In this document: piece by piece, positions 3,885 through 61,640 of the stretch
Position numbering within the stretch: position 1 is the stretch's first letter
Layout: each line of letters opens with the position of its first letter
NCBI RefSeq assembly: GCF_036588685.1
Contig: NC_086376.1
Span: forward strand, 61,256,001 to 61,320,000
Source: Mytilus trossulus
Taxonomy: Eukaryota
Length of the DNA stretch: 64,000 nucleotides
Direction: 5' to 3'
Translations under genes and position numbers: made by a program
Notes under the pieces: model-generated
Told to the model about the DNA's origin: nothing
What the model saw: the letters and a program-made list of their open reading frames with translations, nothing else
Databases searched by the model: none

Positions 3885-4625
3885 ATCATGGGTTTGAACG
3901 TTGTCAAACTCATAAATCGCAAATAAAATGACAACGTCATGGATAAAAATGAAAAAGACAAACAGACAAACAGACAAACAAACAAACAGACAAACAATAT
4001 TACACATGACACAACATAGAAAACTAAAGAATAAGCAACACGAAGCCACCAAAAACGGGGTGCTCTCAGGTGTTCCAGAAGGGTAAGCAGATCCTGCTCC
4101 AGATGTTGCACCCGTCGGGTTGCTTATGTAATAACACATCCGGTAAATAGTCTAATTCGGTAGGTCATATACATGAAAGGGAAGGGGATTGTAGTTACGA
4201 CGTACTGAACATATCCGATATTATTTGTGAAACAGTTATTCCATAATGGTCAACCAACTCATGATGGCGTCCTTAAAATTTACGAAGGGATTATTGCAAC
4301 CTCATCATTTGGAACTCTTGGTTTAATAGCTTCCTTGTGAGCAGCAACCCTCTATCAAAAAAATCATGATAGGAAATGCAAGCACGGGAATATCGTATCA
4401 ATTGGGAGATATATACCCGTATGCAGGTGCTGCTGGAATGTTGGTACTTACAAATGGAAAGTTCTCAATTGGAAAGCTGAGATCATCTCTGTTGTCGTGA
4501 AGTATTGTTTTCAACCGACCCTCGTTATCAATTTCTAAATGTAAGTCAAGATATGAGACCGACTCAACTGTATTTGTTGTATCCGTTATCTCTAGTTCGA
4601 CGGGATAAAGGCGTTCCAAATAGCC
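3885..4625 (-). mobile_element. 5'-truncated Penelope-like retroelement copy (RT C-terminus and 3' UTR)
   Basis: Reverse complement of about 37100-37800. ORF 4398..4811 contains RLYPVELEITDTT..SYLDLHLEIDNEGRLKT; the copy is frameshifted. Confidence 0.9.
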
Positions 4626-6200
4626 ACCAACTAAGTATTTGATAACTATTTGATAACTATTTGCAGTCTTTGCGCCGTGTTTGGAAATTTTAAAATTGCA
4701 CCAGCGTCTCTGATGTTTGTTTAAACTGTTTTTATTTGTATAAATTTCAAGATTGCAATAACTAATTTTTATATAAAATTTATATTTTAGCAGCATTCCA
4801 GAGAGGGACATAAAAAGCTTCCCTTTAAGTGAATAATTTGTTGTTACTGCTTTACAAAAATACTGTTTACTTATAACTTTATATTTATTTAAGGTATGAC
4901 TTAGGAAAACGTTTTCTATTATAGCAGAATATTTGAAATAAGAAAAAAAGGCTTACCAAACCACTTAGTATGGCTTGCTCGGTCATCAAATATTCATGGT
5001 AGAGTCCTACTCTAGGCCAATATTCTCATATTATGTGTTTTCGAGATTCAAGATATTAACCATCAAAGGAGGTTAACCTATGAAATGTTCACTTCCTTTT
5101 CTACCTAGGTACAATATTTAGTAACGATGTAACCCCTTACTTCCAAAATATTCGTAAGATAGATGATATGTATTTTTATGACCCGCAATTTTTTTTTCTG
5201 GAATAAAAAGTAATATCCATTCTCTACAACTGTCAAATTCAAGGGAATATTTTTGTTTCGACCCTACATCGAATGCAACCGGATGTGACATGCAATTTGG
5301 TGTTACACCTTTTCCATTCGTTACATTTGTTGATATAGTCTTACGTTTAATTTTGTCAGTATTTATTGAGTTCCCATGTTTTATATTGAAGTTTGATTTT
5401 TTATTAATACTTTTTTCATATATATACTATCTGGAAGACTTTAAAGGTCGTTGTGCAAGTAAATATATCTAGCATTCAACATGATAATAATGAATCTTGG
5501 CTCTTCTGAAAGAGAATTATCACGGATTAACATGTTGAAAAGGCTGAAGAATCAGAGCTACACATAAAACGTTTAATTGTTGATTCTATTAATATACATA
5601 TAAATAACGTCTTATTGTCATTGAATTGTCATTATTTATGACAGTTATCTTCGTAATTTCTTTTACTTATATGAAATATTTCTGTTTTTATAAAAGAGTA
5701 GTCTATATACCAATTCATCTCGCCATTGTGTTTTTGGGTTATTTTCGTTTTTGTATTAAAATGTCTATATGCTTTTTCGTGCTTCTTTGTTTCATTTTTG
5801 TTTGTTTTTATAGTGGTTAAGATTATAACTCAAAACTGATAGCTGTACCTCTATCTTTGACATTTTTACCTTTAATGTATTATTTTTGTTTGATTTGTTC
5901 ACTCATCGTTGAAAGGATAAGGATATTTCACTCTTATACATACAAATGAGAGGTTTAGGTGGCTATAAAACAAGGTTAAACCCTATATATTCTACATAAG
6001 AAATGCCTGTACCTAGTCAGGCATATGCCATTTGTTATCCATTGGTTTAATGTGTTTGAACTTCAGAAAACAGGAGTTGCATGAAACAATTAAGTACAAT
6101 GAATCCTTTTTAATATACATTTAATATTTATAAACCATTATAAACAAAATAAACAAATTTGTAGAAAATCTCCATCAATTCTTCATTGTCTCCTCCGATT

Positions 6201-7726
6201 CTAATATGTTCCTTTTTTACCTGAAAGGATAAACGATGTTGTTATAATAATTTGGGTGCATTGTATAATAGAAGAAAGAGTTGTGAATAAAGTTCATATT
6301 CTCCAAGTAACTAGTTTGATGTACATTCTACTAAAATTGATCAATCCGCCAGGTTTTTTTTATATTTATTTATGTACCCTCCGGTTGTTTATAAATATTT
6401 ATTCCTCCGTGTATCTCCTTCTTTGTTTTGTTATTATGCTGTGTCAAGTTTTTATAATTTTTGATTCAGAGAATAAGTATTTTAATTAATATAAATTACT
6501 TTAAAAATAGAATACAATGCACTAGGAATAAGAATATAAATCTTTACAACAAAAAGGATATGTCCTTTCATTTTGTATGAAACTCCCTCTCAAATCACAA
6601 TTTGGCAATAATAGTTATTATATAATATTTACAAAATTGTCCATTTATTTTATTTAGTGGTGTTAGATTACTTACCTCTAAATTTACCAAAACTGCCACT
6701 GTGAACGTTTCTTCTATTTATGAGTCCACCATTGACGTTAATACCAAAACCATTCAAACCACCAATACCATGTGATCCTAAACCATTCATACCACTATAT
6801 GATCCAAAACCATTCAAACCACCATATGATCCTAAACCATTCATACCACTATATGATCCAAAACCATTCAAACCACCATATGATCCAAAACCATTCAAAC
6901 CACCATATGATCCTAAACCATTCATACCACTATATGATCCAAAACCATTCAAACCACCATATGATCCAAAACCATTCAAACCACCATATGATCCTAAACC
7001 ATTCATACCACTATATGATCCAAAACCATTCAAACCACCATATGATCCAAAACCATTCAAACCACCATATGATCCAAAACCATTCAAACCACCATATGAT
7101 CCAAAACCATTCAAACCACCAATACCATATGATCCAAAACCATTCAAACCACCATATGATCCAAAACCATTCAAACCACCAATACCATATGATCCAAAAC
7201 CATTCAAACCACCATATGATCCAAAACCATTCAAACTACCAATACCTCCAATACCATATGATCCGTGGTTATTAACACCGTATGCCCCATTAAAACCATA
7301 TGATCCATACACATTTCCTCCAAGTCCTTGTCCGTATCCATAACCCATGAAAGGTCCAATAACTTTGCCGTAAACACCGTTATAACCATAACCACCTAAT
7401 CCATTTAAACCCCTTCCGTTCATGAACCCGTATCCAGGATATCCACTTTGTATATTATATCCATTGTATCCAGAATAACCACCAATGTTTAACGGTGAAC
7501 CGTTACCATACGCGTTGTTGGAAAATCCTCCAGATCCATAACCTAATCTGCCATAAGACGGATATCCGAAGCCACCATTTCCTTGAAATCGAATACTTCC
7601 AATATTACCTGGTCCGAATGGGTTTCCATATGTTTTCAGGTTATATTTGGGACTATATCCTTTCTCTCCGGCCTCGGATGCCACGAGTCCAAAAAGGGCT
7701 AAACCGATCAATAATATTGGTGTCAT
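6201..7726 (-). CDS. Secreted Gly/Tyr/Asn-rich repetitive structural protein, copy 1 (about 356 aa); coding exons 7726-6676 and 6220-6201
   Basis: Signal peptide MTPILLIGLALFGLVASEA and GGLNGFGSY repeats. Donor AGAG|gtaagt at 6676/6675 and acceptor tttcag|GTAAAAAAGGAACATATTAG give ...GKFRGKKGTY*. The acceptor tttcag lies 11 nt before the ATG (exon starts 7737). Confidence 0.9.
6760..7262 (-). repeat. Coding tandem repeat, 27-bp unit (GGLNGFGSY / SGMNGLGSY) with an 81-bp higher-order period
   Basis: ccatatgatccaaaaccattcaaacca repeats directly; the variant ctatatgat..cctaaaccattcatacca recurs roughly every third unit. Confidence 0.95.
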
Positions 7727-8009
7727 GTTTAGTGGTTCTGAAACGATATTCCATTATAATTAACTAATAATAATTTATGTGAAAATTCAAAACATTGACT
7801 TATCAGAACGACAGAACATATAAAGAAAAAAAATAATTGCAAAGATTTAAGACGTAAGTAAAATGAAATGTAAGTTGAATCTATATTAAAAAAGGTCAAA
7901 CTTATCCTGGCGTTTTAAGTTCCTGAAATTTATTTAAAAAGAAAGTAATGCTAAATATATCAAATATGAAAAACATATTTTTTCAAACAAACACAAAACA
8001 TACATTTAA

Positions 8010-20062: not shown

Positions 20063-20460
20063 TAACTGTTTTGGTCTGAGCGTCACTGATGAGTCTTATG
20101 TAGACGAAACGCGCGTCTGGCGTATTAAATTATAATCCTGGTACCTTTGATAACTATTTACACCACTGGGTCGATGCCACTGCTGGTGGACGTTTCGTAC
20201 CCGAGGGTATCACCAGCCCAGTAGTCAGCACTTCGGTGTTGACATGAATATCAATTATATGGTTTTTTTTTATAAGTTTTCTGTTTACAAACCTTTGAAT
20301 TTTTCGAAAAACTAAGGATTTTCTTACGCCCAGGAGTAGATTACCTTAGCCGTATTTGGCACAACTTTTTGGAATTTTGAGTCCTCAATGCTCTTCAACT
20401 TTGTATTTGTTTGGGTTTTTAACTGTTTTGGTTATAATCCTGGTACCTTTGATAACTATT
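20063..20460 (+). mobile_element. Retrozyme-type repeat unit, second hammerhead deleted
   Basis: Terminal redundancy aactgttttgg and ttataatcctggtacctttgataactatt at both ends; homologous to 44050-44496. Confidence 0.85.
20080..20123 (+). ncRNA. Minimal type I hammerhead ribozyme
   Basis: gcgtca CTGATGA gtct-tatgt-agac GAAA c-gcgc-GTC^tggcgt: stems I and II and a palindromic stem III; predicted cleavage after 20117. Confidence 0.93.
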
Positions 20461-20479
20461 ATTTGCTTCTCATATATAT

Positions 20480-20995
20480 GTTATGATGATATGATACTAA
20501 ACCCCTAACGCGAAAAAATGTGCTTGATATTCATATGAGGAAGACATAATGTTTCAATCAGTTTTATTGAGGTTTGAAGCTTGCATGTTAGTAACTGCTA
20601 ATAGTCCTTAGTTAATTTATGTATCATTGTCATTTTGTTTAGTTTCTTTTTTTACCTATCCTGACATCGGATTCTGACTTCTTTTAAACTGAGTTTTACT
20701 GTGCGCATTGCTGAGTGTTTACTTTTCTACAATGGCAAGAGGTATAGGAGGAGGGTTGAGATCTCAAAAACATGTTTTACCACGCTGCATTTTTGCGGCT
20801 GTCCCAAGTCAGTTGCCTCTGACCTTTGTTAGTCTTAGTTCATTATATATTTCGTAGTATAACGTCCATTATCACATTTTTGTTTAGGGGTCAGCTGAAG
20901 CACGCCTTCGGTTGCACGTTTTCTAGTTACCATTGGTTCATTGCCTTCTGTTGTTTTCTACTCTTTGGTCGGCTTGTTGTCTCTTTTGCCCATTT
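20480..20995 (-). repeat. Dispersed repeat, same family as 39924-40571 and 60118-60365
   Basis: Reverse-complement match over several hundred bp (atactaaacccctaacg, gaagacataat, gtcccaagtcag..gcctctg). Confidence 0.8.
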
Positions 20996-27687: not shown

Positions 27688-27960
27688 AATATCTGTGTTT
27701 ATGTAACTTTGGTTACAAAATTCCCGATTATTTACAAATATATTTCGTGCATTCAATATCTTTAATGGCTATATATACTGATCAAGGTGAACTAATTCGC
27801 AAGTATACATAATGTAGGGCTAATGAACATATCCAGTCAAAATGGAACTCATTTTGTATTCAATATATGTGACCTTAATGAAAATAACTGTAGTAAGACG
27901 TTTATCAAGCAGAGTTTAATTGAGACAGATTTGATACCAGGTCCTCTCCTTTTGATTCGA

Positions 27961-28004
27961 GCGTCACTGATGAGTCTTCTGTAGACGAAACGCCCGTCTG
28001 GCGT
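27961..28004 (+). ncRNA. Solo minimal type I hammerhead ribozyme
   Basis: gcgtca CTGATGA gtct-tctgt-agac GAAA c-gccc-GTC tggcgt; loop III is not palindromic. Confidence 0.85.
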
Positions 28005-28578
28005 AAATATAAAATTCTAATCCTGGCATCTATGATGAGTTTATTAGTTTATAATCTTATATATAATTTCACATATCTTTATCTTCTATATTTGGTTATT
28101 TGTATTATTGCGTTTCATTTCTGCTAATATGCCTTGTCTATATGCCCTTTTAAGCTTCTTTGTTACATGTTTGTTTTTATAGTGATTGAGAATATAACAC
28201 AATGTTGACTGCTGTAGCTCTATTTTTTTACATTTTTACATGTTTACCTATTATGTCTTATTTGTGTTTGTTTTGTTCACACATCGTTGTAAGGATAATG
28301 AAATTGATGCGACTGTCATACAAGTTCAAGTTTCAGGTAGCTATAAAACCAGGTTTAATCCAAAATTTTCTACAAAAAAAGTGCCTGTACCAAGTCAGGA
28401 ATATGACAGTTGTTATCCATTTGTTTGATGTGTTTAAGCTTGAGAACACAGGACTTGCATGAAAAAATCAAGTACAATACACTATTTAATATTCATTTTA
28501 TTATTTACAAACCATTACAAACAAAATAATCAAATTTGTAGAATACCTTCATGAATTCTGCAATGCCTCCATGGAAAG

Positions 28579-29502
28579 TTAATATGTTCCTTTTTTACCT
28601 GAAATGATAAAACAATGTTCACATAATAAGTTGATTACATTGAATTATTGAAGGAAGAGTTGTGAATTAAGCAAATTCTCTTTTGATTCAGAGAATAGGT
28701 ATTTTAATCAGGATTAATCATTTTCAAAATAGAATACAATGCACAAGGAAAAAGAGAATAAATCTTCACATCAAAAAACAATATGCCATTTTGTAATGAC
28801 ACTCGCTTTCAAATAACAATTTTTCAATTGTTGTTATATTATATTTATAAAATTTCGATTTTATTCTATTTAGCGATCTTATATTACTTAACTCAAAATT
28901 TGCCAAAACTGCCAAACCCACTGTGACTGTTTCTTCCATTTATGAGTCCACCATTGACGCTAATACCAAAACCATTCAAACCACCTATACCATATGATCT
29001 AAGACCAATCAAACCACCATATGATCCAAAACCATTCAAACTAACAATACCGCCAATACCATAAGATCCCAGATTATTAACACCGTATGCCCCATTAATG
29101 CCATATGTTCCATGCATATTTCTTCCAAGTCCTTTGCCGTATCCATAACCCATGAAAGGTCTGATTCCTTTACTGTATACTGTATTCTCCTTCCGTTCAT
29201 GAACCCGTATCCAGGATATCCACTTTGTACACTATATCCATTGTATCCAGAATAACCACCAATGTTTAACGGTGAACCGTAACCATACGCGTTGTTGGCA
29301 AATCCTCCATATCCATAACCAAATCTACCATAAGACGGATATCCGAAGCCACCATTTCCTTGAAATCCAATACTTCCAATATTACCTGGTCCGAATGGGT
29401 TTCCATATGTTTTCAGGTTATATTTGGGACTATATCCTTTGTCTCCAGCCTCGGATGCCACGAGTCCGAAAGGGCTAAACCGATCAATAATATCGGTGTC
29501 AT
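28579..29502 (-). pseudogene. Gly-rich secreted protein copy 2, pseudogene
   Basis: Close to copy 1 but has a 1-nt deletion in the signal peptide (about 29468), a net 28-nt loss at 29161-29188, AGA>TGA at 28893-28895 and donor GT>TT at 28891. Terminal exon is 28579-28598. Confidence 0.88.
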
Positions 29503-29798
29503 GTTTAGTGGTTCTGTAACGATATTCATTTATAATTAACTAATAATAATTTATGTGAAAATTCAAAACATTGACTAATCAGAACGACAGAAAATATAAA
29601 GAAAAAAAATAATTGAAAAGATTTAAGACGTAAGTGAAATGAAATGTAAGTTGACTATATATTTAAAAAGGCCAAACTTATCCTGGCGTTTTAAGTTCAT
29701 GAAATTTATTTAAAAAGAAAGTCATGCTAAATACACCTGAAAAACATAATTTTTAAAACAAACACAAAACATACATTTTAAGTATAGCAACTGCTTAC

Positions 29799-31089: not shown

Positions 31090-31510
31090 TAAATAATAAA
31101 TTAGAAACAACACGAACTCCACTAAAAACCGGGAGTAAAATCAGGTGCTCCGGAAGGGTATGCATTTCCCGCACCGTATATGGCACCCGTCGTGTTATTT
31201 CTTTGGTCAGTTCGGTAATGATGGAATGTTTTTATGACTGAGGAAGAATATCATATATGATTTCTGACGCACTTTTGTCATGATGACCAATCAGCTCAAA
31301 AACCGTAATCTTGAGTGATGACCTTACTTTGATTGATTCATAGCCCTGTCTTAGCAACTTTCGAGAAAGCAGAAGTCATCACGCATATTATGCTATCTCT
31401 AAAGTAACGTACCAATTGAGACACATATACTCAAGATGATGATGCAGCTGGGATGTTGCTTTACAGAAATGGAAAGTTGACTATAGGAAAATTAAAATCA
31501 TCGCGTTTGT
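31090..31510 (-). mobile_element. Old Penelope-like 3' fragment
   Basis: tcaggtgctccggaagggta, gatgttgct...agaaatggaaagtt and cacccgtcgtgtt match the reverse complement of 37230-37690. Confidence 0.75.
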
Positions 31511-34500
31511 ATAGTTCCATGTCATTAAATTGACCAAAAACATATTTTAAGATTTGATTTAAATAAATTTTTACTGTAACTTTGAAACACATATCTTTTT
31601 TTAAAAGGTTATTAAGGATTGTTATGAAAGTTCATGATATTAAATTTTTGTTTTAACACAAAAAGGTGTTTATTTGGTTTAAGCTGATTTGAAAAAAATG
31701 TAATCTTAAAAAAGACACCATTTTGTGTTGTTAAAACAAAAATTTAATATGAGGAAAGATATATTTCTAATATCGTAGCTTTTTGACCTAGATTAATTAA
31801 ATTCTTAAATTTGACAGAAGTACACAAAACTAAATAACAACCTATGATTCAGTAAGATCAATATATTGCGAAGATAGTTGTAGAGTTTGATGAAAATCTA
31901 AGTTGAATTGAAAAAAATAAAATGACCTGGGATTCAGTAAGCTTAATGTATATCTAAGATAGCTACATAGTTTGATGAAAATCCAAGTTGATTTGAAAAA
32001 GTTATTAAATAAATTAAAGTGTACTATCTCTATTTTATCTGAACTGTAAATCCTAGCTTTTTTTTTTAACAAGATAACTTAAATTCTTAAATTTTACAAC
32101 AATACAACAAATAACTAATTGACCTGGGATTCAGTAAGCTTAATATATATCTAAGATAGCTGCATAGTTTGATGAACATCCAAGTTGATTTGAAAAAGTT
32201 ATTGAAAAAACTAAAGTGTAGTATCTCTATTTTGTCCGAACTGCAAATCCTAGCTTTTTTTTACCAAGATTACTTAAATTCTTAAATATTACAACAAATA
32301 ACTAATTGACATGGGATTCAGTAAGCTTAATATATTTGTAAGATAGCTGCATAGTTTTATGAACATCCAAGTTGATTTGAAAAAGTTATTAAAAAAATTA
32401 AAGTGTACTATCTCTATTTTGTCCGAACTGCAAATTCTAGCTTTTTTGACCTAGATTAATTTTATTCTTGAATTTGACAGCAATACAACAAAAAATAAAA
32501 TGACCTGGGATTCAGTAAGCTTAATATATATCTAAGATAGCTACATAGTTTGATGAAAATCCAAGTTGATTTGAAAAAGTTATTAAAAAAAATAAAGTGT
32601 ACTATCTCTATTTTGTCCAAATTGCAAATTCTATCTTTTTTGACCTAGATTAATTTAATTCTTGAATTTGACAGCATGTCAACAAAAAATAAAATGACCT
32701 GGGATTCAGTAAGCTTAAAAAATTAAAGATGCCCATCTGAATTTATATAATAATTTTTACCTATTGTAAAATTAAATTCTTTCATTTCACAGCAATAAAA
32801 AAAAAACTACCTAATAAGCTTGAATATTGAAAGATCATTACTTAATTAAGTAAGATTGGCGGATTTACACCAGTCTAAACTAAATTTGAAGGTCAAGACT
32901 TGTCGAGACAGGTCGAGACTGGTTGAGACTGAGTCGAGACTAGTCGAGACAGGTCGAGACTAGTCGAGACAGGTCGAGACTAGTCGAGACAGGTCGAGAC
33001 TATCCAAGACAGGTCGAAACAGGTCGAGCCTTGGCCAAGACTATTTCAGACTACACAAAGATCATCAAGTACTGAATCAGACTAATTAAGTAAAGTCGAG
33101 ACCTAGTCGAGTACACTTAAGTACAGTTAAGTACAGTCGAGACAATGTCGAGACTAGTCGAGTAAAATGTGTGCTCGATTTTACTGGTCGAGCACAAAAA
33201 CTGGTCAATTCAGACTCTGAGCAGTTTATAGTGTAAGTTTTTGGATGTCTATGAATTAGATAGCACCACAAACTTATTCTCGGCGAATATGAATATTCAT
33301 CAAATGGTTTCTTGTGATGGGAAATACACTGAAATGCAGTCAACTTTCGCGTTTGATAGTTTAATAATTACATAAGATGTATGTTTCATTATAATACCTT
33401 ATTCTGAATGGCTAAATGCACATCACATGTTAATCCGTAAGCAATTGCATCAGACAATAAAACTTATCATTCATAATGACACGAGGTCCTACAAAAAAGT
33501 GCACAGGTGAATTAAATAAAACTCTATAAAAACCGTGTTTTCATGATCCTAGCTAAAAAAAAATCAAATTATAAGTAATGATTGCTTCTTTTTGTAACTT
33601 TATAGGGTTGTAAAAGCGTTGACCGTGCGTACATTTTTAGAATGAGGCGCCTCCGCGCTTCATACAAAATGTACTTCGGTCAACGGTTTTACAGCTAATA
33701 AATTTATAAAAAGAAGCATTCAATTCTTAATTGTTAACATTCTGGCGTATTACAAACAAACAACTTGTTACGTCTCATTTCATTGGTCGAAAGATTTAAA
33801 TACAACAACAATGTAGTCAGTGTGCACGCAAATTGACACAGGTGACCGACAATGGAATTTACTATGTTACTACGAACGTAAAACACTGATTTGTATAGTT
33901 TATAAACCTTTGTTCAAAAGAATTAGATAAATGTTTTGTTAACTTCAAATAGTAGGGTCGAAATATTATACTGATATTTTGTTTTAAGTAATATTCTAAG
34001 TTCTTTATGCATGCAGCAATTCAATTGTCTTTTAACCGGCATGATGAGAAATATAAGGATAAAATAAAATACATGTGGCGCTTTTATACGGATGAATATA
34101 TGAACCACTTTCAATTTCTTTCATACTGACGATAGGTTATAATCCTAACAATTTCGTAGTCACTTATAATAAGTATCTCACAATACTGATCCTTTACAAT
34201 AATTAATGAGGGGTTGCACTGACATTCCTCTTTTATTTTTTTCATGCTATAAAACATACACACAGTAGCTATAAGCGTACCATATACGGGGGAAATTGTC
34301 CCCCAAAGATAGAAACAAAATAACTTACATCGTATCATTTCTGCACCTGAATGAATTCAGTGAACGAAGGCATGTTGTTGTAATAAATTGAAATGTTATA
34401 TCGGCGAAGATTATTTCTTTTGCATGTTTGGAACTAATTACTAAATCAATCTTTGTGAAAAATGTCGTAGTTTATAAGGAACAATTCTCGTTTGAATTGT

Positions 34501-37500
34501 CATACATTATTTCGGGACCATTTATAACTGACTATGCAGTATGGGCTTTACTCATTATTGAAAGCCGTACGGTGGCCTATAGTTAATTTCTAACTGACCT
34601 GTTAAGTTAGAACTGTGTCATGTTGGTCTCTTGTGGAGAGTTGTCTCATTGGCAATCATACCACATCTTCATTTTTAAATATAAATGTGCTGTTTTCGAT
34701 TTTAAATGGTTAACATTTATCTTTTAATTTTAAAGCAGATAAAAAAAAATGAAACTCAGCAACAAATAAAAGCATAAGCTAGAGTACAGTGATTAACATT
34801 TATCTTTGTCGGTCATCTGTGTCAATTTACGTGCACACTGACTACATTGTTGTTGTATTTAAATCTTTCGACCACTGAAATGAGACGTAACAAGTTGTTT
34901 GTTTGTAATACGCCAGAATGTTATCAATTAAGAATTGAATGCTTCTTTTTGTAAATTTATTGGGGTGTAAAACCGTTGACCGAAGTACATTTTGTATGAA
35001 GCGCGGAAGCGCTTCATTCTAAAAATGTACGCACGGTCAACGCTTTTACAACCCTATAAAGTTACAAAAAGAAGCAATCAATACTTATAATTTCATTTTT
35101 TTAGCTAGGATCATTAAAACACGGTTTTTATAGAGTTTTATTTAATTCACCTGTGCACTTTTTTGTAGGACCTCGTGTCATTATGAATGATAAGTTTTAT
35201 TGTCTGATGCAATTGCTTACGGAATAACATGTGATGTGCATTTAGCCAATCAGAATAACGTATTATAATGAAACATACATCTAATGTAATAATTGAACTA
35301 TCAAACGCGAAAGTTGACTGCATTTCAGTGAATTTCCCATCACAAGAAACCATTTGATGAATATTCATATTCGCCGAGAATAGGTTTGTTGTGATATCTA
35401 ATTCATAGACATCCAAAAACTTACACTATAAACTGCTCAGAGTCTGAATTGACCAGTTTTTGTGCTCGACCAGTAAAATCGAGCACACATTTTACTCGAC
35501 TAGTCTCGACATTGTCTCGACTGTACTTAACTGTACTTAAGTGTACTCGACTAGGTCTCGACTTTACTTACTTAGTCTGATTCAGTACTTGATGATCTTT
35601 GTGTAGTCTGAAATAGTCTTGGCCAAGGCTCGACCTGTTTCGACCTGTCTTGACTTGTCTCGACCTGTCTCGACTAGTCTCGACTCAGTATCAACCAGTC
35701 TCGACCTGCCTCGACAAGTCTTGACCTTCAAATTTAGTTTAGACTGGTGTAAATCCGCCAATCTTTCTAAATTAAATATTGATCTTACAATAATCAAGCT
35801 TATTAGGTAGTTTTTTTATTGCTGTGAAATGAAAGAATTTAATTTTACAAAAGGTGAAAATTATTATATAAATTCAGATGGGCATCTTTAATTTTTTAAG
35901 CTTACTGAATCCCAGGTCATTTTATTTTTTGTTGAAATGCTGTCAAATTCAAGAATTAAATTAATCTAGGTCAAAAAAGATAGAATTTGCAATTTGGACA
36001 AAATAGAGATAGTACACTTTATTTTTTTCAATAACTTTTTCAAATCAACTTGGATTTTCATCAAACTATGTAGCTATCTTAGATATATATTAAGTTTACT
36101 GAATCCCAGGTCATTTTATTTTTTGTTGTATTGCTGTCAAATTCAAGAATAAAATTAATCTAAGTCAAAAAAGCTAGAATTTGCAGTTCGGACAAAATAG
36201 AGATAGTACACTTTAATTTTTTTAATAACTTTTTCAAATCAACTTGGATGTTCATCAAACTATGCAGCTATCTTAGATAGATATTAAGCTTACTGAATCC
36301 CATATCAATTAGTTATTTGATGTAGTGTTGTAAAATTTAAGAATTTAAGTTATCTTGTTAAAAAAAAAGCTAGGATTTGCAATGTGTACAAAATAGAGAT
36401 AGTACACTTTAATTAATTTTTAATAACTTTTTAAAATCAACTTGGATTTTCATCAAACTATGTAGCTATCTTAAAACCCCTTTCTAAATTATTAACATCC
36501 ATTTTATCAGCAATCAAAAACGAGCTTCAAAGTTATTGTGAAACTGCCTTTTCTAGAGGTGGCGTGAATCATATGTGGATACTTAAAAATTCCAAAGATC
36601 TTTTAGAGTACATACAATCTAACTCTCTTTCATCTTGTAACAGTATTAAAACATTTGACTTTTCTAATCTTTACACAAGTATTCCACATTCCAAACTAAA
36701 AGACAAATTAAAAGAGTTGGTATTACTTTGCTTCATAAAAAAGAATGACCAACGTAGATACAAGTATCTCGTCTTAGGGAGGGATAAGTCCAACTTTGTA
36801 AAGAATCACTCTGATTCAAACAAAGAATTCTCTGAAACCGATATTATCAAGATGCTTGATTTCTTGATTGACAACATATTTGTTACGTTCGGAGGACGTG
36901 TTTTTCAACAGACTGTCGGCATCCCAATGGGAACAAACTGTGCCCCTCTATTTGCTGACTTGTTTCTTTATTATTATGAGGCTGACTTCATGCAGGAACT
37001 TCTTAGGAAGAAAGATAAGAAGTTAGCAATATCCTTTAACTCTACTTTCCGCTATATAGATGACGTTCTTTCACTAAACAATTTAAAATTTGGTGACTAT
37101 GTGGATCGCATCTATCCCATAGAATTGGAGATAACGGATACTACAGATACAGTTAAGTCGGCTTCATATCTTGACTTACATCTAGAAATTGACAATGAGG
37201 GTCGGTTGAAGACAAAACTTTACGACAAAAGAGATGATTTAAGCTTTCCAATTGTGAACTTTCCATTTCTAAGTAGCAACATTCCAGCAGCACCTGCATA
37301 CGGAGTATATATCTCCCAATTTATACGATATTCCCGTGCTTGCATTTCCTATCATGATTTTCTTGATAGAGGGTTACTGCTCACAAGGAAGCTTTTAAAC
37401 CAAGTTTCCAAATGGTGAAGTTGAAATCATCCCTTCGTAAATTTTACGGACGCCATCACGAGTTGGTTGACCGTTATGGAATAACCGTTTCACAAATGAT

Positions 37501-38275
37501 ATCGGATATGTTCCTTACGTCGTAACTACAATCCCCTTCCCTTTCATGAATTTGACTTACCGAATTAGACTATTTACCGGATTTGTAATCACATAAGCAA
37601 CACGACGGGTGTCGCATGTGGAGCAGGATCTGCTTACCCTTCCGGAGCACCTGAGATCACCCCTAGTTTTTGGTGGGGTTCGTGTTGTTTATTCTTTAGT
37701 TTTCTATGCTGTGTCATGTGTACTATTGTTTTTTCTGTTTGTCTTTTTCATTTTTAGCCATGGCGTTGTCAGTTTGTTTTAGATTTATGAGTTTGACTGT
37801 CCCTTTGGTATCTTTCGTCCCTCTTTTAGATATACATTGAGCTTACTAAATCCCAGGTCATTTTATTTTTTCAATTCAACTTAGATTTTCATCAAACTCT
37901 ACAACTATCTTCGCAATATATTGATCTTACTGAATCATAGGTTGTTATTTAGTTTTGTGTACTTCTGTCAAATTTAAGAATTTAATTAATCTAGGTCAAA
38001 AAGCTACGATATTAGAAATATATCTTTCCTCATATTAAATTTTAGTTTTTATAACACAAAATGGTGTCTTTTTTAAGATTACATTTTTTTCAAATCAGCT
38101 TGAACCAAATAAACACCTTTTTGTGTTAAAACAAAAATTTAATATCATGAACTTTCATAACAATCCTTAATAACCTTTTAAAAAAAAGATATGTGTTTCA
38201 AAGTTACAGTAAAAATTTATTTAAATCAAATCTTAAAATATGTTTTTGGTCAATTTAATGACACGGAACTATACA
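31508..38275. mobile_element. 6.8-kb foldback-type inverted repeat: left arm 31508-33852, spacer about 950 bp, right arm 34806-38275
   Basis: The arms are reverse complements end to end (tgtatagttcc.tgtcattaaattgacc / ggtcaatttaatgaca.ggaactataca). They contain ~193-bp tandem units, a 10-bp gtcgagac(ta/ag) array and a nested hairpin. Confidence 0.9.
36474..37825 (+). mobile_element. 5'-truncated Penelope-like retroelement with RT ORF (open 36474-37418; frameshifted tail to 37525), inserted in the right foldback arm
   Basis: RT motifs FDFSNLYTSIP, GIPMGTNCAP, FRYIDD and SYLDL. It interrupts a tandem unit at gctatcTTA|...|TTAgatatac. Confidence 0.92.
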
Positions 38276-39563
38276 TGGTTTATTACATCAGTACATGTGA
38301 GTTTTACAGGTAAAAAGAAAGCCCTTTTTTTTCTCAAACTCGTGTATTTCTTATCTAGTGAATTAAAAAAGCTTTGCGATTTAAATTTCACAGGATGTTG
38401 CGACTTTGAATAAATGTTATTTAGAATTCAAAACTCTCTGGTAGATGTGATCTTTTTCTTATTCTTACAGTTGATGTTGTACTTCGTGACATGGATTTGT
38501 TTTCTCGCAATATGTCTATGACTTTTGATCGAAAGTATACTACTGTTGCCTTATTTATATATCAATCTGTAACCTTCCAACTGATTTAGTGTTCAACGTC
38601 ACAATCAGTCTGCAAAAAGCATGACCTTTTACAGTTAAGTTTTGAAGAGTCGTATTTACATTTACATGCATTAAAAATAAAACGATTGCCAAAATTATGA
38701 TGTTGTTGTTGTTATTGGTTTTGGGAGGTGGCTTAGTTATGTAGTAATTGCTCCTTAAATTCATATATATAAATATTATGTATATATACTTTCAGTCTTT
38801 AATTTTATTTTTAGTATTAAGTTTTGTCGTGTAACTATATGAAACTTTGACGAACATGGTTGACTGAATTACTAGGAAATATATATATATTGAGAGACAA
38901 AAAAAAGCAAAAAAAACCCACACATATCAGAAGGTACATGTACTATGAAAAATTATTATGTGAAATCGTGTAAGTCAAAAGGGCTCTACATGACCATGCA
39001 GCAATACTGCCTAATCCAATCTGTGTATATATGTGAACGTCAAGATAAGAGACAGACTTAATTGTATCGTGTATCCAGTTAATGGAAAAGTTGGAAAAGA
39101 TGTGTTCAGCATAGTCACAAAAAATTGCACTACTCAGTAAGAGAAAAACATTTTCTTAGTATATAGCAACAAAAAAGTTAATGAATACTGCCAACATTTT
39201 TTCTTTCATCATCAAAAGTTCCTGTATAAAGTCATTTTCCAGTGAAATAAGGAAAACCTCGCAAAGAATAGTAATTTCATTTCCATGTGATAAGTAAGGT
39301 TTAATATCTTGCATGGGGTTTTTTTCTTTCGAAAATGTTGGCTTTTGTTTCTCGTTTTATCTTTTTGGTCGCAGTAATTCGTCCACAAATGGTTTTCAAT
39401 TGAAATGTTTATATCTCTATATTTCCATTAAATGGTATTATAGAAAACAAAACGTGCATGAAAAATCAAGAAGAAAAAGATTTATATTTATTTTAATATT
39501 CATAAACCATTATAAAAAAATCTATAAAACATCGACATCAATTCATCATGGACTTCTTGGATT

Positions 39564-41719
39564 CTAATATGTTCCTTTTTTACCTGCAATGACAAAAATA
39601 ATGTTGAAATAATAGCTGATTGCATTGCATTATTAAAGAAAGATTTCAGTTCATATTCTCAAAAGATTTTGTTAAATGTACATTCCGCTAAAATTTCTCA
39701 AACTTTCAGTTTTATGTCTTCTACGGTCGTTCATATCTGTTCTTATTCTTCCGTACATCTCCTTCTTTTCCTTCAGTTTTTCAGGTTTGATTTAAATAAT
39801 TGGTATTAAATTAATCTAAATAATTTTCAAATCAAACAAAAAGAATGCACAAGGTTTATGGAAAACGACTTGTCGCATACAATTTCAAAGCTTATTTCAA
39901 ATTTTTCAAAACCTTTCAAATCAATAAAATTGAGAAAGGAAATGGTAAATATGTCAAAGCGACAACCACCCGACCATAGAGCAAACAACAGTCGAAGGCA
40001 ACCAATGGGTCATCAATGTAGCGAGAATTCCCGCACCCGTAGGTGTCCTTCAGCTGGCCCCTAAAATATGCATAATAGTACAGTGATAATGGACGTCATA
40101 CTAAACTCCGAATTATACACAAGAAACTCAAATTTAAAATCATACAAGACTAACAAAGGCCAGAGGCTCCTGACTTGGGACAGGCGCAAAATTGCGGCGG
40201 GGTTAAACATGTTTATGATATCTCAATCCTCCCCCTATACCTCTAGCCAATGTAGAAAAGTAAAAGAATAACAATACGCACATTAAAATTCAGTTCAAGA
40301 GAAGTCCGAGTCCGATGTCAAAAGATGTAACAAAAGAAAATAAATAAAATGACAATAATACATAAATAACAACCGACTACTAGCAGTTAACTGACATGCC
40401 AGCTCCAGACCTTAATTAAACTGATTGAAAGAGTATGCCTTCATCATATGAATATCAGGTACAATCCCTCCCGTTAGGGGTTTAGTATCATACTATCATA
40501 AAATATATGAAAAGAACATAACCCGTGTCATGCCAACAACTGTGTTTTTAGAAATAAATGTGTTTAGTTTCATGTTCATTTGTTTATACCTTGCTATGCT
40601 TAAGTCTTAGTTTAGAAATATCAATAAAGTCTCCATAGAGTGAAGCATAAGCAATCAATGTAATATTGTAACAAAGTATTTTACCATATACCACCAAAAG
40701 TTATAAATTATCCAATTCATTCATCATGCGGCATGATTTGTTTAACGATTTCCTTTCACACATATTCGTTTGTCGGAACAACGTGACGAACGAATGTCAT
40801 TTTGTATGAAACCCTCTTAAGTTACAAGCTGGCAACTGTATTTGTATTATAATTAGAAAATTTCACATTTACATAACAACTTTTTCTTCTTTTTAGTGAT
40901 GTAGGATTACTTACCTCCAAATTTACCAAAACTGCTCAATCCACTTAGACCTCGTCTTCCATTTATTAGTCCACCATTCACACCAATACCATTACCATTC
41001 AAACCACCAATACCATTACCATTCAAACCACCTACACCGTATGATCCAGAACCATTTAAACCACCAATACCATGAGATTTATAACCATTCAAACCTCCAA
41101 AACCGGATGATCCAAAACCATTTAAACTACCAATACCACCAATACCATATGATCCAAAGTTATTCAAACCACCATATGATCCGAAACCATTCAAACCCTC
41201 ATATGATCCAAAACCATTCAAACCACCAATACCATATGTTCCGTAATTGTTTGCACCACCGTATGCCCCATTAATACCATATGCTCCATAACCATTCAAA
41301 TTGTTATATCCTTCAATTCCTCGACCGAATCCATTACCATTAAAAAGTCCGATATTTTTACCGTTAAAACCGTAATTTTCATTACCACTGAATCCGTTCA
41401 ATCCTCTGCCATGTAGATATCTGTATCCAGGATATCCACTTTGAATACTATATCCATTGTATCCAGCAATACCACCAATGTTTAATGGTGAACCGTAACC
41501 ATAGGCGTTGTTGGAATATCCCCCGTATCCGTATCCTGATCTACCATAAGTTGGATATCCAAATCCACTATATCCTTGGTATCCAAAACTAGCAATATTA
41601 CCTGGTCCGAATGGATTTCCATATGTTTTCAGGTTATGTGTGGGACTGTATCCTTTTTCACCGGCCTCCGATGCAACGAGTCCGAAAAGCACAAAAGAAA
41701 TCAATACTATTGGTGTCAT
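39564..41719 (-). CDS. Secreted Gly/Tyr/Asn-rich protein, copy 3 (about 274 aa); coding exons 41719-40915 and 39583-39564
   Basis: The true start is MTPIVLISFVLFGLVASEA (acceptor at 41731). Same donor and acceptor as copy 1, giving ...GKFGGKKGTY*. AATAAA lies about 75 nt past the stop. Confidence 0.9.
39924..40571 (+). mobile_element. Dispersed repeat inserted in the last intron of copy 3
   Basis: Absent from the matching intron of copy 4 (tcaaatcaatgttcatttg at about 49390). Starts aataaaattgagaaaggaaatgg like other copies. Confidence 0.85.
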
Positions 41720-41940
41720 GTTTGTTGGTTCTGAAACGATTTTCAATAATTCGTCAAAATAAAAAAAATAATAATAAAACCTTTAAAACATAAACAAAAA
41801 CGGATCACCGAAAATGCTTAAGTAGATTAATGAAAGATAAAAGTTGTAAATAAAATATTGAGTTATGACGAATTATGACGATTAACATGATCTTTTGTGA
41901 GAGAAAGACGAATATCTTTTAAAGCAAATCAAGTACTTAC

Positions 41941-42260
41941 CTCTGTAATGATCTATGCTGGTGTGTTCCTTGTGATACGTATTGTTTACTGCGTCTTATA
42001 TAATATACTCACTGACCACACATTATGTTATAATCAGTTATAAAATAAACATTTAACAATGATAAACCTGTAAAGTGGGTTTAATTAACAAACAAAACCC
42101 CCAAAAAAACGGTTTACCACAATGATAGAAAATATTGTCATCAATTATTTGTTGCTATTATTTTACCCTTTGTTATCTTGGTTTAGGGACTTTCACCTAT
42201 TAGTAATATTTGAAATTCATATAATACAAGTGTAATTCAGTATTAGGAAAATTTCCCATT
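41941..42260 (-). promoter_or_regulatory. Non-coding exon 1 (donor at 41941) and promoter of copy 3
   Basis: agag|gtaagt donor, TATATAA at 41996-42002, conserved upstream blocks. Confidence 0.75.
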
Positions 42261-44085
42261 TTATTTAAGTATTCGTACACATTCATTGATATCCAAGTTG
42301 TGTATTTCTAATTATTTGTGTCGTTTAATGTTGTTTCATTTTTTGCATTTTTAACACTGTATTTGCAATTGATCTATTCAGACTCGGACTTTTTAAACCA
42401 ACGTTAACTGAGTTAAAAGTTTAGCTAGCTTAAAATTCAGGTTTAATCCACCATTTTCCTAGTCATAAAATGCATGTTTCAAATTCAGGAATATGCCAGT
42501 TATTATCCGTTCGTTTTGATGTGTTTGAGCTTTTGATTTTGCAATTTGCTGAGGGAATTTCCGTTTTAAATTCCCTTGGAGTTCGTAAATACATTTTTTT
42601 TACTTTACTTCTTGCATTCATTTTCATTTTTTTTTTAAGAAGTTGAATTATGATTTTATTCTTTTGGAAATGTATAAACAATCGTCTACATAACAATGTG
42701 TAGAAATACTAAAGACCGAATGACATGAAACCATGCAAAATCAGGGATGATACAATGTACTCTTGAAGGTCTTTCATATCCTGCTCCAAACATATCACCT
42801 GCTGTATCGTTCATGGTAATGGCATACTCTTACAAAACGTTAGTCAGATGTATACCTGTGTAGAACGTTTATACAATAAAGGCGAAAATTACTAGAGGAA
42901 CAGTCAAACTCATATATTGAAAATAAACTGACAACGCCATGGTTAAAACTGATAAAAACAAAACAGATAATAGTACGTGAGAAACAACATAAAAAAACTG
43001 AAAACTGAGAGTCGAGAACCCCACCCCAATCTGGGGGTATGATTGTGTGTCTCTCATAAAGGCATTGTGTCTATCTCGGTTGCTCATTCCATTTTTTTAC
43101 TGAACTATAATAACTGTTATATAATTCGGAGGATAAATAACCGATAGCACACCTTTTAATAAACCATTTTCTTCGGGGCATGCATTACCAAATAATGAAT
43201 ATAACATTTACCCGTTGGTTGATAACGTTAAATTTGGTTAGTTTTCATGGCTATCTCCCCTTTTTCAATTTATTTTCCGGCTCGGCGTGTTTGTTTCTTT
43301 TTCTTATATCGTATCAGCTGGAAATTATAAATTTCATATGCTAGAGTGTTGCTACAAACAAATGAAAAATAACAAAAGCTGAAATATATTTTTTTTTTAT
43401 TTCATTTTGTTTATCTCTTGCACGAACAGTAAGCTACTTTTTGGGGTAACAACATTGTTTACAAAACTGTTCGACGACAGAGAAACTCATTCCAAATGAT
43501 AGTTTTTTGGAATTTGAATTTGAAACCAAATTTAATACCCAGAAAAAAATCGAAATGAATTATTTGTCTCACAACAAAATACAATGAAAATTTTGCCATA
43601 AGCTGTCAAACGTACATTCAAATTCCCAGCTACCCTTTCCTTTGTTATGAGTTCAACTATTTTAAAAACATTCATGTTCTTTATGATATATTTTTGTCAA
43701 AATTATATGTTTTATTTTCACAAGCCATCTCTGACCTAAAAATGTATAAATACAATATATTTATATTTACTATTCTTTAATAACATAAAATAATTTGACA
43801 CTTCTAACCAATACTGTAGAAATGTCATAGATTCGAAAATCACAAAACAGCAAATATTGAGAATGTTTCATAAACCGCAAATATAGAAATGAAGAACACT
43901 TTTTTGGTTTATGTAAAAATATATCATTAATTACAATATCTTCATTGTGGTTAACCTTGAAAACATAAATAGTCTATTGCAATGGTTCTTTGTTGCTTTG
44001 TGTCTTTTTTTTTAACAAATATTATCAGAAATTGAAAATGTTTCATAAATAAACTTATCATAGATACCAGGACTAAATTTAGTAT

Positions 44086-44129
44086 ACGCCAGACGCGCGT
44101 TTCGTCTACAGAAGACTCATCAGTGACGC
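44086..44129 (-). ncRNA. Minimal type I hammerhead ribozyme
   Basis: Minus strand reads gcgtca CTGATGA gtct-tctgt-agac GAAA c-gcgc-GTC tggcgt. Confidence 0.93.
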
Positions 44130-44448
44130 TCGAATCTAAAAAAGATAACAAGGCCAAATAAAGAAGAAAGTTGAAGAGCATTGAGGACCAAAACTCCTAA
44201 AAGTTTTGACACATACATATAAGGTAATATTTGCCTAAGGTAGAAAAGTCTTAGTATTTCAAAAAATTCTAAAATTTGTTAACAGTAAATTTATAAATAT
44301 AAAAATATCAATGACAATTCATGTCAGCACAAAAAGTGATGACTACTTGGCCTGTGATACCCTCGGGGAAATAAGTCTCCACCAGCAGTGGCATCGACCC
44401 TGTTGTTGTAAATAAACTAATTATAGATACCAGGACTTAATTTAGTAT

Positions 44449-44492
44449 ACACCAGACGCGCGTTTCGTCTACAGAAGACTCATCAGTGACGC
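44449..44492 (-). ncRNA. Minimal type I hammerhead ribozyme
   Basis: Same core; the 3' stem I strand is tggtgt (G-U wobble). Confidence 0.92.
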
Positions 44493-44935
44493 TCGAAACC
44501 GCTAATATAATAGTGGATAACACTTTTTTGTTGTTTAAGTACAAATAAATAATTTATTACACTATTATCTTCGCTGTGGTTAACCTTGAAAACACATATC
44601 GTCTATGGTCGTTCGTTGCTTTATGTATTTTTAATAATTATCAAAACTTGCGGTTTGTGATTACAGTATATAGGTCACAGCGTTTACAGAATTTTGTCAT
44701 TGCTAACTTAAATTGTTTATAGCTCGCAAAAAAGCAGGTTCAACATTTATTCCGTGTGACGATTTCTGAAGTCATGATGTTGCATAATAATATTGATGAT
44801 AGGATAGGAATAACTTAAATTTAGGGATCGGATTCGGGTTTTGAGGGTTCTATTTTGAATTTTTGTGATGATTGTTTTGAGTTCTGGGTTTTTTTTTCTT
44901 TTTAAGCGAGTGTATGGTATCCGAAATTAAACATA

Positions 44936-49035: not shown

Positions 49036-50630
49036 CTAATATGTTCCTTTTTTACCTGCAATGATGAAAACAATGTTCAAATAATAAGGTGATTGCATTG
49101 CATTATTAAAGGAAGATTTCAGTTCATATTCTCAAAAGATTTTGTTAAATGAACATTCCGCTAAAATTGCTCCAAAAAAACTTTCGGTTTTATGTCTCCT
49201 ACGGTTGTTCGTATCTTTTCTTATTCTTCCGTACATCTCCTACTTTTCCTTCAGTTTTTTATGTTTTATTTAGATAATTGGTATCAAAATAACTTTCAAA
49301 TCAAACGAAAAAAATGCACAAGGTTAATGGAAAACGACTTGCCCCATACAATTTCAAAACTTATTTAAAAAAAATCAAAACCTTTCAAATCAATGTTCAT
49401 TTGTTTATTCCTTGCTATGCTTTAGACTTAGTGTATAATTAAAGATAAATTCTTCATAGAGTAAAGTATAAGCAATCAATTTAATATAGTAACAAAATAT
49501 TTTACCATATACCACCCCATCTTAAATAATTATCCAATACATTCATCATGGAGCATGATTTGTTTTCCGATTTCCTTTTACTCATATTCGTTTGTCGGAA
49601 CATTAATCTAAATCAATTAACGTGACGAACGAATGTCATTTTGAATGAAACACTTTCAAGTAACAAGTTGGCAATTATATTTGTATTAATATTATGAAAT
49701 TTCACATTTAAATAACAACTTTTTCCTCTAGTAGGATTACTTACCTCCAAATTTACCAAAACTGCTCAATCCACTTAGACCTCGTCTTCCATTTATTAGT
49801 CCACCATTGACACCAATGCCATTACCATTCAAACCACCAATACCGTATGATCCAAAACCATTTAAACCACCAATACTATAAGATCTATAACCATTCAAAC
49901 CACCAAAACCAGATGATCCAAAACCATTTAAACTACCAATACCACCAATACCATATGATGCAAAGTTATTCAAACCACCATATGATCCGATACCATTCAA
50001 ACCACCATATGATCCAAAACCATTTAAACCACCATATGATCCATAACTATTTAAACCACCAATACCATATGTTCCGTAATTTTTAGCACCACTGTATGCC
50101 CCATTTATACCATATGCTCCATAACCATTTAAACCACCAATACCATATGTTCCGTAATTGTTAGCACCACCGTATGCCCCATTAATACCATATGCTCCAT
50201 AACCATTTAAATTGTTATATCCTCCAATTCCTCGACCGAATCCATTACCATTGAAAGGTCCGATATGTTTACCATAAACACCGTAATTTCCGTTACCACT
50301 GAATCCGTTTAATCCTCTGCCATGTAAATATCCGTATCCAGGGTATCCACTTTGTACACTATATCCATTGTATTCATTATAACCGCCAATGTTTAATGGT
50401 GAACCGTAACCATATGCATTGTTGGAATATCCCCCGTATCCGTATCCTGATCTACCATAAGATGGATATCCAAATCCACCATGTCCTTGGTATCCCAAAC
50501 TACCAATATTACCTGGTCCGAATGGATTTCCATATGTTTTCAGGTTATGTTTGGGACTGTATCCTTTTTCACCAGCCTCCGATGCAACGAGTCCAAAAAG
50601 GGCAAAGGAAAGCAATACTATTGGTGTCAT
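49036..50630 (-). CDS. Secreted Gly/Tyr/Asn-rich protein, copy 4 (about 301 aa); coding exons 50630-49745 and 49055-49036
   Basis: Start MTPIVLLSFALFGLVASEA; same splice sites; ends ...GKFGGKKGTY*; closest to copy 3. Confidence 0.9.
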
Positions 50631-50826
50631 GTTTGTTGGTTCTGAAACGAATCCGTTAAATAAAAGAATAATTATAGTACCTTCAAAAATAAGCAAATAC
50701 GTATAATCGAAAATGAAATAAAAAAGTTGCAAATAAGATATTGAGATGTATATACAAAATATGACGTTAAACATGATCTTTTGTGAGAGAAAGACAATTA
50801 TCTTTTAAAGCAAATCAAGTGCTTAC

Positions 50827-60666: not shown

Positions 60667-61640
60667 TGTTTTATCAAGTCTAACATGTCTAAATATATTT
60701 ATTTTGTAAAAATGGATATCTCACAAGTTCTGACAGGACTTCTATGTTTTGTTTTATTAAGTCTAAATATACTTATCTTGAAAAAATTGATATCTCACAA
60801 GTTCTGACAGGACTTCTATGTTTTGTTTTATCAAGTCTAAATATACTTATCTTGAAAAAATGGATATCTCACAAGTTCTGACAGGACTTCTATGTTTTGT
60901 TTTATCAAGTCTAAATATACTTATCTTGAAAAAATGGATATCTCACAAGTTCTGACAGGACTTCTATGTTTTGTTTTATCAAGTCTGAATACACTTATCT
61001 TGAAAAAATGGATATCTCACAAGTTCTAACAGGACTTCTATGTTTTGTTTTATCAAGTCTAAATATACTTATCTTGAAAAAATGGATATCTCACAAGTTC
61101 TAACAGGACTTCTATGTTTTGTTTTATCAAGTCTAAATATACTTATCTTGAAAAAATGGATATCTCACAAGTTCTGACAGGACTTCTATGTTTTGTTTTA
61201 TCAAGTCTAAATATACTTATCTTGAAAAAATGGATATCTCACAAGTTCTAACAGGACTTCTATGTTTTGTTTTATCAAGTCTAAATATACTTATCTTGAA
61301 CAAATGGATATCTCACAAGTCCTAACAGGACTTCTATGTTTTGTTTTATCAAGTCTAAATATACTTATCTTGAAAAAATGGATATCTCACAAGTTCTGAC
61401 AGGACTTCTATGTTTTGTTTTATCAAGTCTAAATATACTTATCTTGAAAAAATGGATATCTCACAAGTTCTGACAGGACTTCTATGTTTTGTTTTATCAA
61501 GTCTAAATATACTTATCTTGAAAAAATGGATATCTCACACTGAGTTCTAACAGGACTTCTATGTTTTGTTTTATCAAGTCTAAATATACTTATCTTGAAA
61601 ATATGGATATCTCACAAGTTCTAACAGGACTTTTATGTTT
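60667..61640. repeat. 74-bp minisatellite, about 13 near-identical copies
   Basis: Unit atgttttgttttatcaagtctaaatatacttatcttgaaaaaatggatatctcacaagttct(g/a)acaggacttct. Confidence 0.97.

Follow-up and report, generated by a model that had tools for sequence, protein, structure and literature searches.

The closest described systems are the non-LTR retrozymes of metazoans, which have at least two consecutive ribozymes, a unit of 150–450 bp and a G+C content below 45–50%, with a target duplication that is optional and longer than 4 bp when present (PMC7229834). In Mytilus galloprovincialis, about 5000 type I hammerheads lie in repeats of 350–390 bp, circular RNAs are abundant in gonad and mantle, a repeat cloned from mussel cleaved itself co-transcriptionally at a rate of about 0.1 per minute, and RtcB ligates mussel retrozyme RNA in vitro, dimers also being formed (PMC7229834). 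The same source calls the circles of the class 'highly self-paired', and some mussel circles exceptional in fold. For metazoan retrozymes, PMC7761336 proposes expression by read-through, and reports neither promoters in them nor, in animal copies, any motif revealing the mobilising partner. Animal retrozymes are tied to Penelope-like elements' pseudo-LTRs in bioRxiv 2026.07.22.740005, and a Penelope-like protein was found to nick AT-rich DNA and to begin reverse transcription at an internal site, an AC-rich stem-loop that lies downstream of its hammerhead (PMC11167929).

The locus described here lies on the minus strand of a 64-kb window (the whole stretch of DNA that was analysed), and is a new copy of this known class, ordinary and partly decayed (Table 1). 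It is probably a 1.25-unit mussel retrozyme that was written at an AT-rich site, likely by a Penelope-like reverse transcriptase, and that is now likely a weak or silent passenger with a shortened and mutated upstream ribozyme. As a single locus it is of small import, mussels carrying thousands of such ribozymes and their circular RNAs being already known.

Table 1. Features of the retrozyme locus and its surroundings, in window positions
Feature	Position	Strand	Remarks
Whole retrozyme insertion	44046..44497	-	452 nt = 1.25 units; repeat, body, repeat
Upstream 89-nt repeat	44409..44497	-	5'-truncated: starts 43 nt before cut
Downstream 89-nt repeat	44046..44134	-	
Predicted monomer RNA	44092..44454	-	363 nt, 34% G+C
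Hammerhead 1	44449..44492	-	Core unmutated; predicted cut after 44455
Hammerhead 2	44086..44129	-	Canonical type I; predicted cut after 44092
Distal helix I of hammerhead 2, predicted	44078..44140	-	44140-44136 pairs 44082-44078 across 6+3 internal loop
Tail past second cut	44046..44091	-	46 nt; end is the family's common 3' end and putative start of reverse transcription
B-box-like 11-mer	44390..44400	-	+55 of monomer; kept in the copies at 20 kb and 0.5 kb
Interrupted unit of older local duplication	44496..44632		Continues below 44046
Paralogous unit	43872..44009		77% identical; target site still empty, near 43870
Gly-rich secreted-type gene, copy 3	40907..42010	-	ORF 40907-41782; element ~2 kb upstream of it
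Gly-rich gene, copy 4	49270..50804	-	ORF 49737-50804; ~4.8 kb upstream of retrozyme

Architecture, class and insertion site

Two 89-nt direct repeats, spaced 363 nt apart and differing at 4 positions, each matched the type I hammerhead model of Rfam (Hammerhead_1, RF00163) on the minus strand, at 44492–44449 with 30.7 bits (E 0.0014) and at 44129–44086 with 32.5 bits (E 0.00033), both scores being slightly below the gathering score of 34. When the whole window was scanned on both strands with a relaxed hammerhead pattern, 4 hits were obtained, 4/4 of them copies of the retrozyme family, so the pair is not a chance occurrence. These matches and repeats bear out the original prediction of two type I hammerheads in direct repeats on this strand, and its 363-nt monomer was also recovered, as 44454–44092, with cut sites (C17) predicted 363 nt apart at 44455 and 44092. 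Its coordinates for the element, 44050–44496, were right in counts and positions, and fell slightly short of the full extent given in Table 1.

Assignment to the non-LTR retrozymes, a class already described in mussels (PMC7229834), agrees with what was found: a type I core in each repeat, two ribozymes, low G+C, non-coding sequence, several copies and a transcribed family. The element resembles the M. galloprovincialis retrozymes (Cervera and de la Pena 2020) in having canonical type I hammerheads in direct repeats, dispersed copies, a 363-nt unit, low G+C, no ORF, a mussel host and family transcription, the comparison with that family, whose cloned circles are MN642551-76, covering architecture, size, G+C and ribozyme type. 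It differs from them in comprising only 1.25 units and in its truncated and mutated upstream ribozyme, and may differ in a target duplication of at most 3 nt and in a monomer that is not unusually self-paired: the circular monomer was predicted to fold at -71.5 kcal/mol (z -0.9), with 17/100 shuffles equally stable, and an unusually stable circle was dropped as a candidate on this comparison. No open frame of 120 codons overlaps the element, and a search for tRNA-like genes on the unit found none, ruling out a tRNA-derived unit.

Three other systems share parts of this layout. As in Penelope-like elements' pseudo-LTRs and in non-autonomous derivatives of such elements, there is a partial tandem with a 5'-truncated upstream repeat carrying a hammerhead (PMC4209133; PMC11167929; bioRxiv 2026.07.22.740005), a 3' end that is fixed, downstream of the cut and next to AC-rich sequence, and an AT-rich target; unlike those elements, the retrozyme has no ORF, and its hammerheads are canonical, theirs being mostly minimal in animals. 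As in the hammerhead SINE-like repeats of Schistosoma, the units are tandem and non-coding, and the sequence from the 3' strand of helix II through helix III to the cut equals the RF00163 consensus letter for letter. Plant LTR retrozymes likewise have two hammerheads bracketing a circularisable monomer; theirs are described as type III ribozymes, with long LTRs, a primer-binding site, a polypurine tract and 4-bp target duplications, whereas the mussel copy has type I ribozymes and 89-nt repeats.

Three further clear copies were found in the window, at 20078–20460 (+), 27950–28045 (+, repeat only) and 303–572 (-, degenerate), bringing the clear copies to four in 64 kb, besides two weak fragments, and two more family copies were found in metagenome contigs (L001 and L002). 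The copy at 20078–20460 has the order repeat, body, repeat, is 79% identical to the copy studied here and belongs to the majority subfamily; its second ribozyme is cleanly absent, the upstream part of that repeat being followed by the tail part. L001 is a marine metagenome contig whose positions 1–224 are part of a mussel-type retrozyme, abutting unrelated coding-like sequence. In one contig run (X16), 50031 contigs matched the retrozyme. Neither viral contigs nor prokaryote genomes contained the ribozyme pattern (0 matches in each), and the core 15-mer of the ribozyme had no match in those paper texts that are searchable. A search of sequencing runs gave a best share of words of 0.26, with no RNA-record holder among those listed, a result without bearing on expression.

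An older duplication of about 175 bp has one of its units split by the insert, the other unit preserving a clean empty site, and the target duplication is 0–3 nt (at most three T), inseparable from microhomology because the element ends match the target at both junctions. The earlier description of an insertion without a clear target duplication inside a local duplication unit is thus confirmed. The surroundings are rich in local duplications, and the two ribozymes might in principle descend from a single copy that was duplicated locally as DNA or multiplied by satellite-type slippage, with no retrotransposed cDNA longer than a unit. This reading is already largely refuted, and we give it almost no weight: the paralogous unit has its clean empty site, the copy at 20078–20460 shares both the layout and the 3' end, and the repeats contain no flank sequence.

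Predicted folding and cleavage of the hammerheads

In both ribozymes, helices I, II and III have 6, 4 and 2 bp, with a palindromic tetraloop on helix III. This 6/4/2-bp type is the canonical metazoan form of PMC4209133, in which 'minimal' denotes motifs without helix III, and the earlier term 'minimal' is accordingly replaced here. The min-HHR of animal Penelope-like elements is described as having no helix III or loop 3, a helix II of 7–8 bp, a short helix I and an extra base before helix II; with helix III and its tetraloop present and a helix II of only 4 bp, this form was ruled out.

The statement that both ribozymes are intact holds for the cores, which are unmutated, and fails for hammerhead 1 as a whole, which is 5'-truncated and has a G-U pair at 44451 in place of the G-C pair of five other copies. 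Hammerhead 1 also lacks its own distal helix I strand, with flank sequence in its place, and this flank could supply a predicted 4-bp substitute distal helix across a 9-nt loop. The helix I duplex was predicted at -1.1 kcal/mol in hammerhead 1 and at -5.9 in five other copies, and the cost of the active fold was 13.2 kcal/mol for hammerhead 1, the highest of six natural copies (others 4.4–7.9), values of which only the ranking is informative, since the nearest-neighbour model ignores the tertiary core and the natural copies all lie 4–13 kcal/mol above the ensemble. Distal helices of 5–8 bp were also present in four other intact copies examined, that of hammerhead 2 being 5 bp, and one position of this helix is A-U in hammerhead 2 and U-A in L001 and the copy at 28 kb. 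Helices were counted sequence by sequence on six copies, leaving out the degenerate copy at 303–572, because a seven-copy alignment sets the distal helix out of register. A two-sequence consensus fold was dropped as evidence of covariation, being too shallow and partly misaligned.

On these predictions the upstream hammerhead is expected to cut poorly, and the locus is predicted to be weak or silent because its upstream ribozyme is both shortened and mutated. It may exceed this predicted activity, its cores being unmutated and a substitute helix from the flank being possible.

Both helix III regions are perfect 8-nt palindromes with a GCGC loop, and these palindromes, together with the predicted dimer energy, uphold the earlier claim that the loops permit a dimeric active fold. 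In the full precursor, the dimer was predicted at 8.1 kcal/mol over the free ensemble and two monomer folds at 18.9, so the dimer fold would be the better route to both cuts in this copy. Dimerisation is not a general need, since the cloned mussel repeat self-cleaves (PMC7229834) and most invertebrate type I hammerheads cleave in monomer form (PMC7761336).

The advantage of about 11 kcal/mol of the dimer over two monomer folds, with both cores and both palindromes unmutated, speaks for an active source locus, one where read-through from copy 4 is cut at both ribozymes via the dimer fold, giving a 363-nt circular RNA. We regard this as unlikely. The weak G-U strand takes part in the cut at 44455 in monomer and dimer folds alike, only 1/9 predicted dimers of Xenopus retrozymes cleaved in vitro, so that a complete-looking ribozyme pair does not imply activity (bioRxiv 2026.07.22.740005), and perhaps few plant copies are active (PMC7761336).

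Two minor features of the folds were noted. A 6-bp hairpin is possible just 3' of helix I (44062–44085 and 44425–44448, minus strand), and rivals the distal helix. The helix II loop letter at 44111 and the internal-loop letters at 44132–44133 differ together, this copy and that at 28 kb having one set and the copies at 20 kb and 0.5 kb, L001 and L002 the other, which may reflect a tertiary contact or merely shared descent.

Transcription of the family and possible transcription of the locus

The retrozyme lies on the strand of copies 3 and 4, as the original prediction stated, the Gly-rich ORFs at 40907–41782 and 49737–50804 likewise being on the minus strand, and read-through from copy 4 would thus have the correct orientation. 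Copy 3 has a likely short first exon ending at 41940 and a TATA-like box near 42000, both conserved in copy 4 by eye, which places the retrozyme between genes and not within copy 3. Poly(A) hexamers of copy 4 were found at 49409 and 49270, about 4.8–4.9 kb upstream of the retrozyme, and 12 further hexamers lie between the 3' end of copy 4 and the retrozyme. The distance and the added hexamers weigh against the locus as an active source, and the read-through expression proposed for the class (PMC7761336) speaks for it.

The two genes belong to a set of four tandem paralogues on the minus strand (6668–7753, 29036–29539, 40907–41782 and 49737–50804) encoding a Gly/Tyr/Asn-rich secreted-type protein, with no Pfam match and with named relatives only in Mytilus. 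For the neighbouring protein, 11/12 relatives were Mytilus proteins, the best being 70% identical, which points to a Mytilus mussel as the most likely host. The paralogues possibly contribute to shell or byssus material, which is a guess. Downstream of copy 3, a SECIS-like Rfam match at 40445–40509 (-) scored 30.9 bits, below the gathering score of 35; it sits inside another repeat, which also follows the retrozyme at 20 kb (20459–20986), and the Gly-rich ORF of copy 3 is open without UGA read-through.

In 3/3 RNA runs of a related organism, 2334, 3752 and 1681 reads matched the retrozyme at 88% likeness, and only 9/2334, 13/3752 and 3/1681 of them were at least 99% alike to the locus; judged by loose ends, most family reads fall to the subfamily of the copy at 20 kb. 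The retrozyme family is therefore transcribed in the related organism, mainly from another subfamily. First mates numbered 472 on the plus strand and 55 on the minus strand at 44312–44362 in run X23, and 159 and 57 in part of run X21, and were balanced in run X24. Plus-strand first mates correspond to ribozyme-sense RNA in most stranded libraries. The abundance of family RNA and the plus excess in 2/3 RNA runs are further points in favour of an active source. RNA depth was zero at 43700–43954 and 44516–44923, with little or none there in contig run X16, and the animals behind the RNA runs probably lack the allele studied here, so the blank flanks are uninformative on read-through. Neither a pile-up of read starts or ends at the cut sites nor a circle-specific joint was among the ends listed, a blank that says nothing either way, since junction reads are collinear with the repeats.

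Read-through would be unneeded if retrozymes transcribed themselves from a degenerate internal promoter of the tRNA type, read by RNA polymerase III. A B-box-like 11-mer occurs at +51 to +55 in 3/3 window copies holding that region, and these copies account for 3/5 hits when 128 kb are scanned with the relaxed motif, a form of the B-box consensus that was loosened after the match had been seen. The 11-mer opens the best-conserved, G+C-rich part of the unit. The A box is only partial, no tRNA-like gene was found, and the monomer holds eight runs of at least four T, the first of which, T5 at 44335, would stop transcription near +120. The hammerhead SINEs of schistosomes appear to be transcribed by polymerase III (PMC6765202), in contrast to the retrozyme, which has only the B-box-like motif followed by T runs and, with its partial A box and T5, departs from a polymerase III SINE of the schistosome type. 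PMC7761336 sees no promoters in metazoan retrozymes, and we consider self-transcription very improbable.

The common 3' end and a proposed route of insertion

In 5/6 copies, namely the copy studied here, the second repeat of the copy at 20 kb, the copy at 28 kb, L001 and L002, the 3' end lies +43 to +46 past the cut, in register; the sixth, at 303–572, fades inside the body. Reads leaving the element at 44046–44047 into mixed sequence numbered 159 in run X21 and 134+111 in run X24 among the loose ends listed, with an agreement of the exiting sequence of 0.42–0.46 (24 of 987 loose-end rows). Just after +46, the unit has an AC-rich run. The four clear window copies start about 43–56 nt before a cut site (at 44497, ~20064, ~27950 and 572), a short way upstream of the ribozyme, so that by eye, with n = 4, there may be a cluster of 5' ends as well.

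The common 3' end resembles the internal priming of Penelope-like elements, and suggests the same start of reverse transcription here. What would be expected of a non-autonomous element mobilised by Penelope-like machinery was found in this small sample: a partial tandem, a fixed internal 3' end and an AT-rich target. In the mechanism we propose, a nicked target strand would serve as primer at an internal position of the RNA, near +46, aided by a 4-nt match to the target, and copying would cross the cut site, proceed through one full unit, cross the cut site again and halt 43 nt further. As copying would have run across the cut site, the template would not be a cut linear monomer; a circle could have served, and so could a multimer, whether uncut or re-ligated. 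If the locus itself is transcribed, hammerhead 2 would act in monomer form at 44092, whereas cleavage at 44455 is predicted to be slow and to depend mostly on the palindrome-mediated dimer fold, and a host ligase of the RtcB type would circularise any monomer set free.

The template may not have been one circle but a tandem transcript left uncut, or two monomers ligated into one RNA. This tentative reading, which we hold somewhat less probable than its converse, concerns the origin only and is compatible with the reading of the locus as a decayed passenger. The upstream repeat tail carries the locus variants 44451, 44438, 44422 and 44419; 4/4 repeat differences fall in the 46 nt after the cut and 0 in the 43 nt before, a distribution with a chance of 0.07 under an even spread, which is not significant. 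Unprocessed RNA is the main in vitro substrate of the Penelope-like protein (PMC11167929), and the dimers made by RtcB (PMC7229834) would offer a second source of such a template. On this reading the repeats would have differed from the outset, and their differences would not date the insertion. Set against this are the change at 44451, which is of the CG-to-TG type, absent from five other copies, and fits decay after insertion, and the letter of hammerhead 2 at 44422, which is found in most family reads. The tail-only differences are a weak hint of two different monomers, and ordinary decay explains them equally.

A broader proposition, that mussel retrozymes have a fixed internal start of reverse transcription about 45 nt past the cut, next to an AC-rich run, and that this copy records a two-monomer template, is speculative and rather doubtful. 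If true, a motif of the kind that reveals a mobilising partner would be given by the common 3' end (+43 to +46), which would link mussel retrozymes mechanistically to Penelope-type internal priming. Copying would in every insertion pass the cut site straight away, so that only circles or uncut multimers would transpose, the choice between circle and uncut template would become testable from genome sequence alone, and whether the circles of animal retrozymes really are transposition intermediates could be put to a genome-wide test. A fixed internal 3' end met with no mention in the available parts of the retrozyme and Penelope papers, none of the searches having been directed at this point alone, and it may already be in print.

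The only Penelope-like reverse transcriptase family examined in the window was of the Naiad type, as defined in PMC8557442: relatives of the fragment at 36435–37415 carry an N-terminal GIY-YIG, CxC and DKA. The 3' region of one Naiad-type copy was compared with the retrozyme, with no significant match (best E 0.31), and Naiad was dropped as a shown partner for want of significant shared sequence. The Naiad-type copies at 36435–37830 (+) and 3903–4630 (-) are 5'-truncated and frameshifted, and the window holds many further occurrences of their 3' non-coding part. A large inverted arrangement occupies 31500–38280, with 31508–31957 matching 38275–37826 at 98% and 32152–33852 matching 36473–34806 at 93%, and with internal repeats of about 190 bp, and at 60681–61640 a 74-bp unit is repeated in tandem about 13 times, the copies being about 96% identical.
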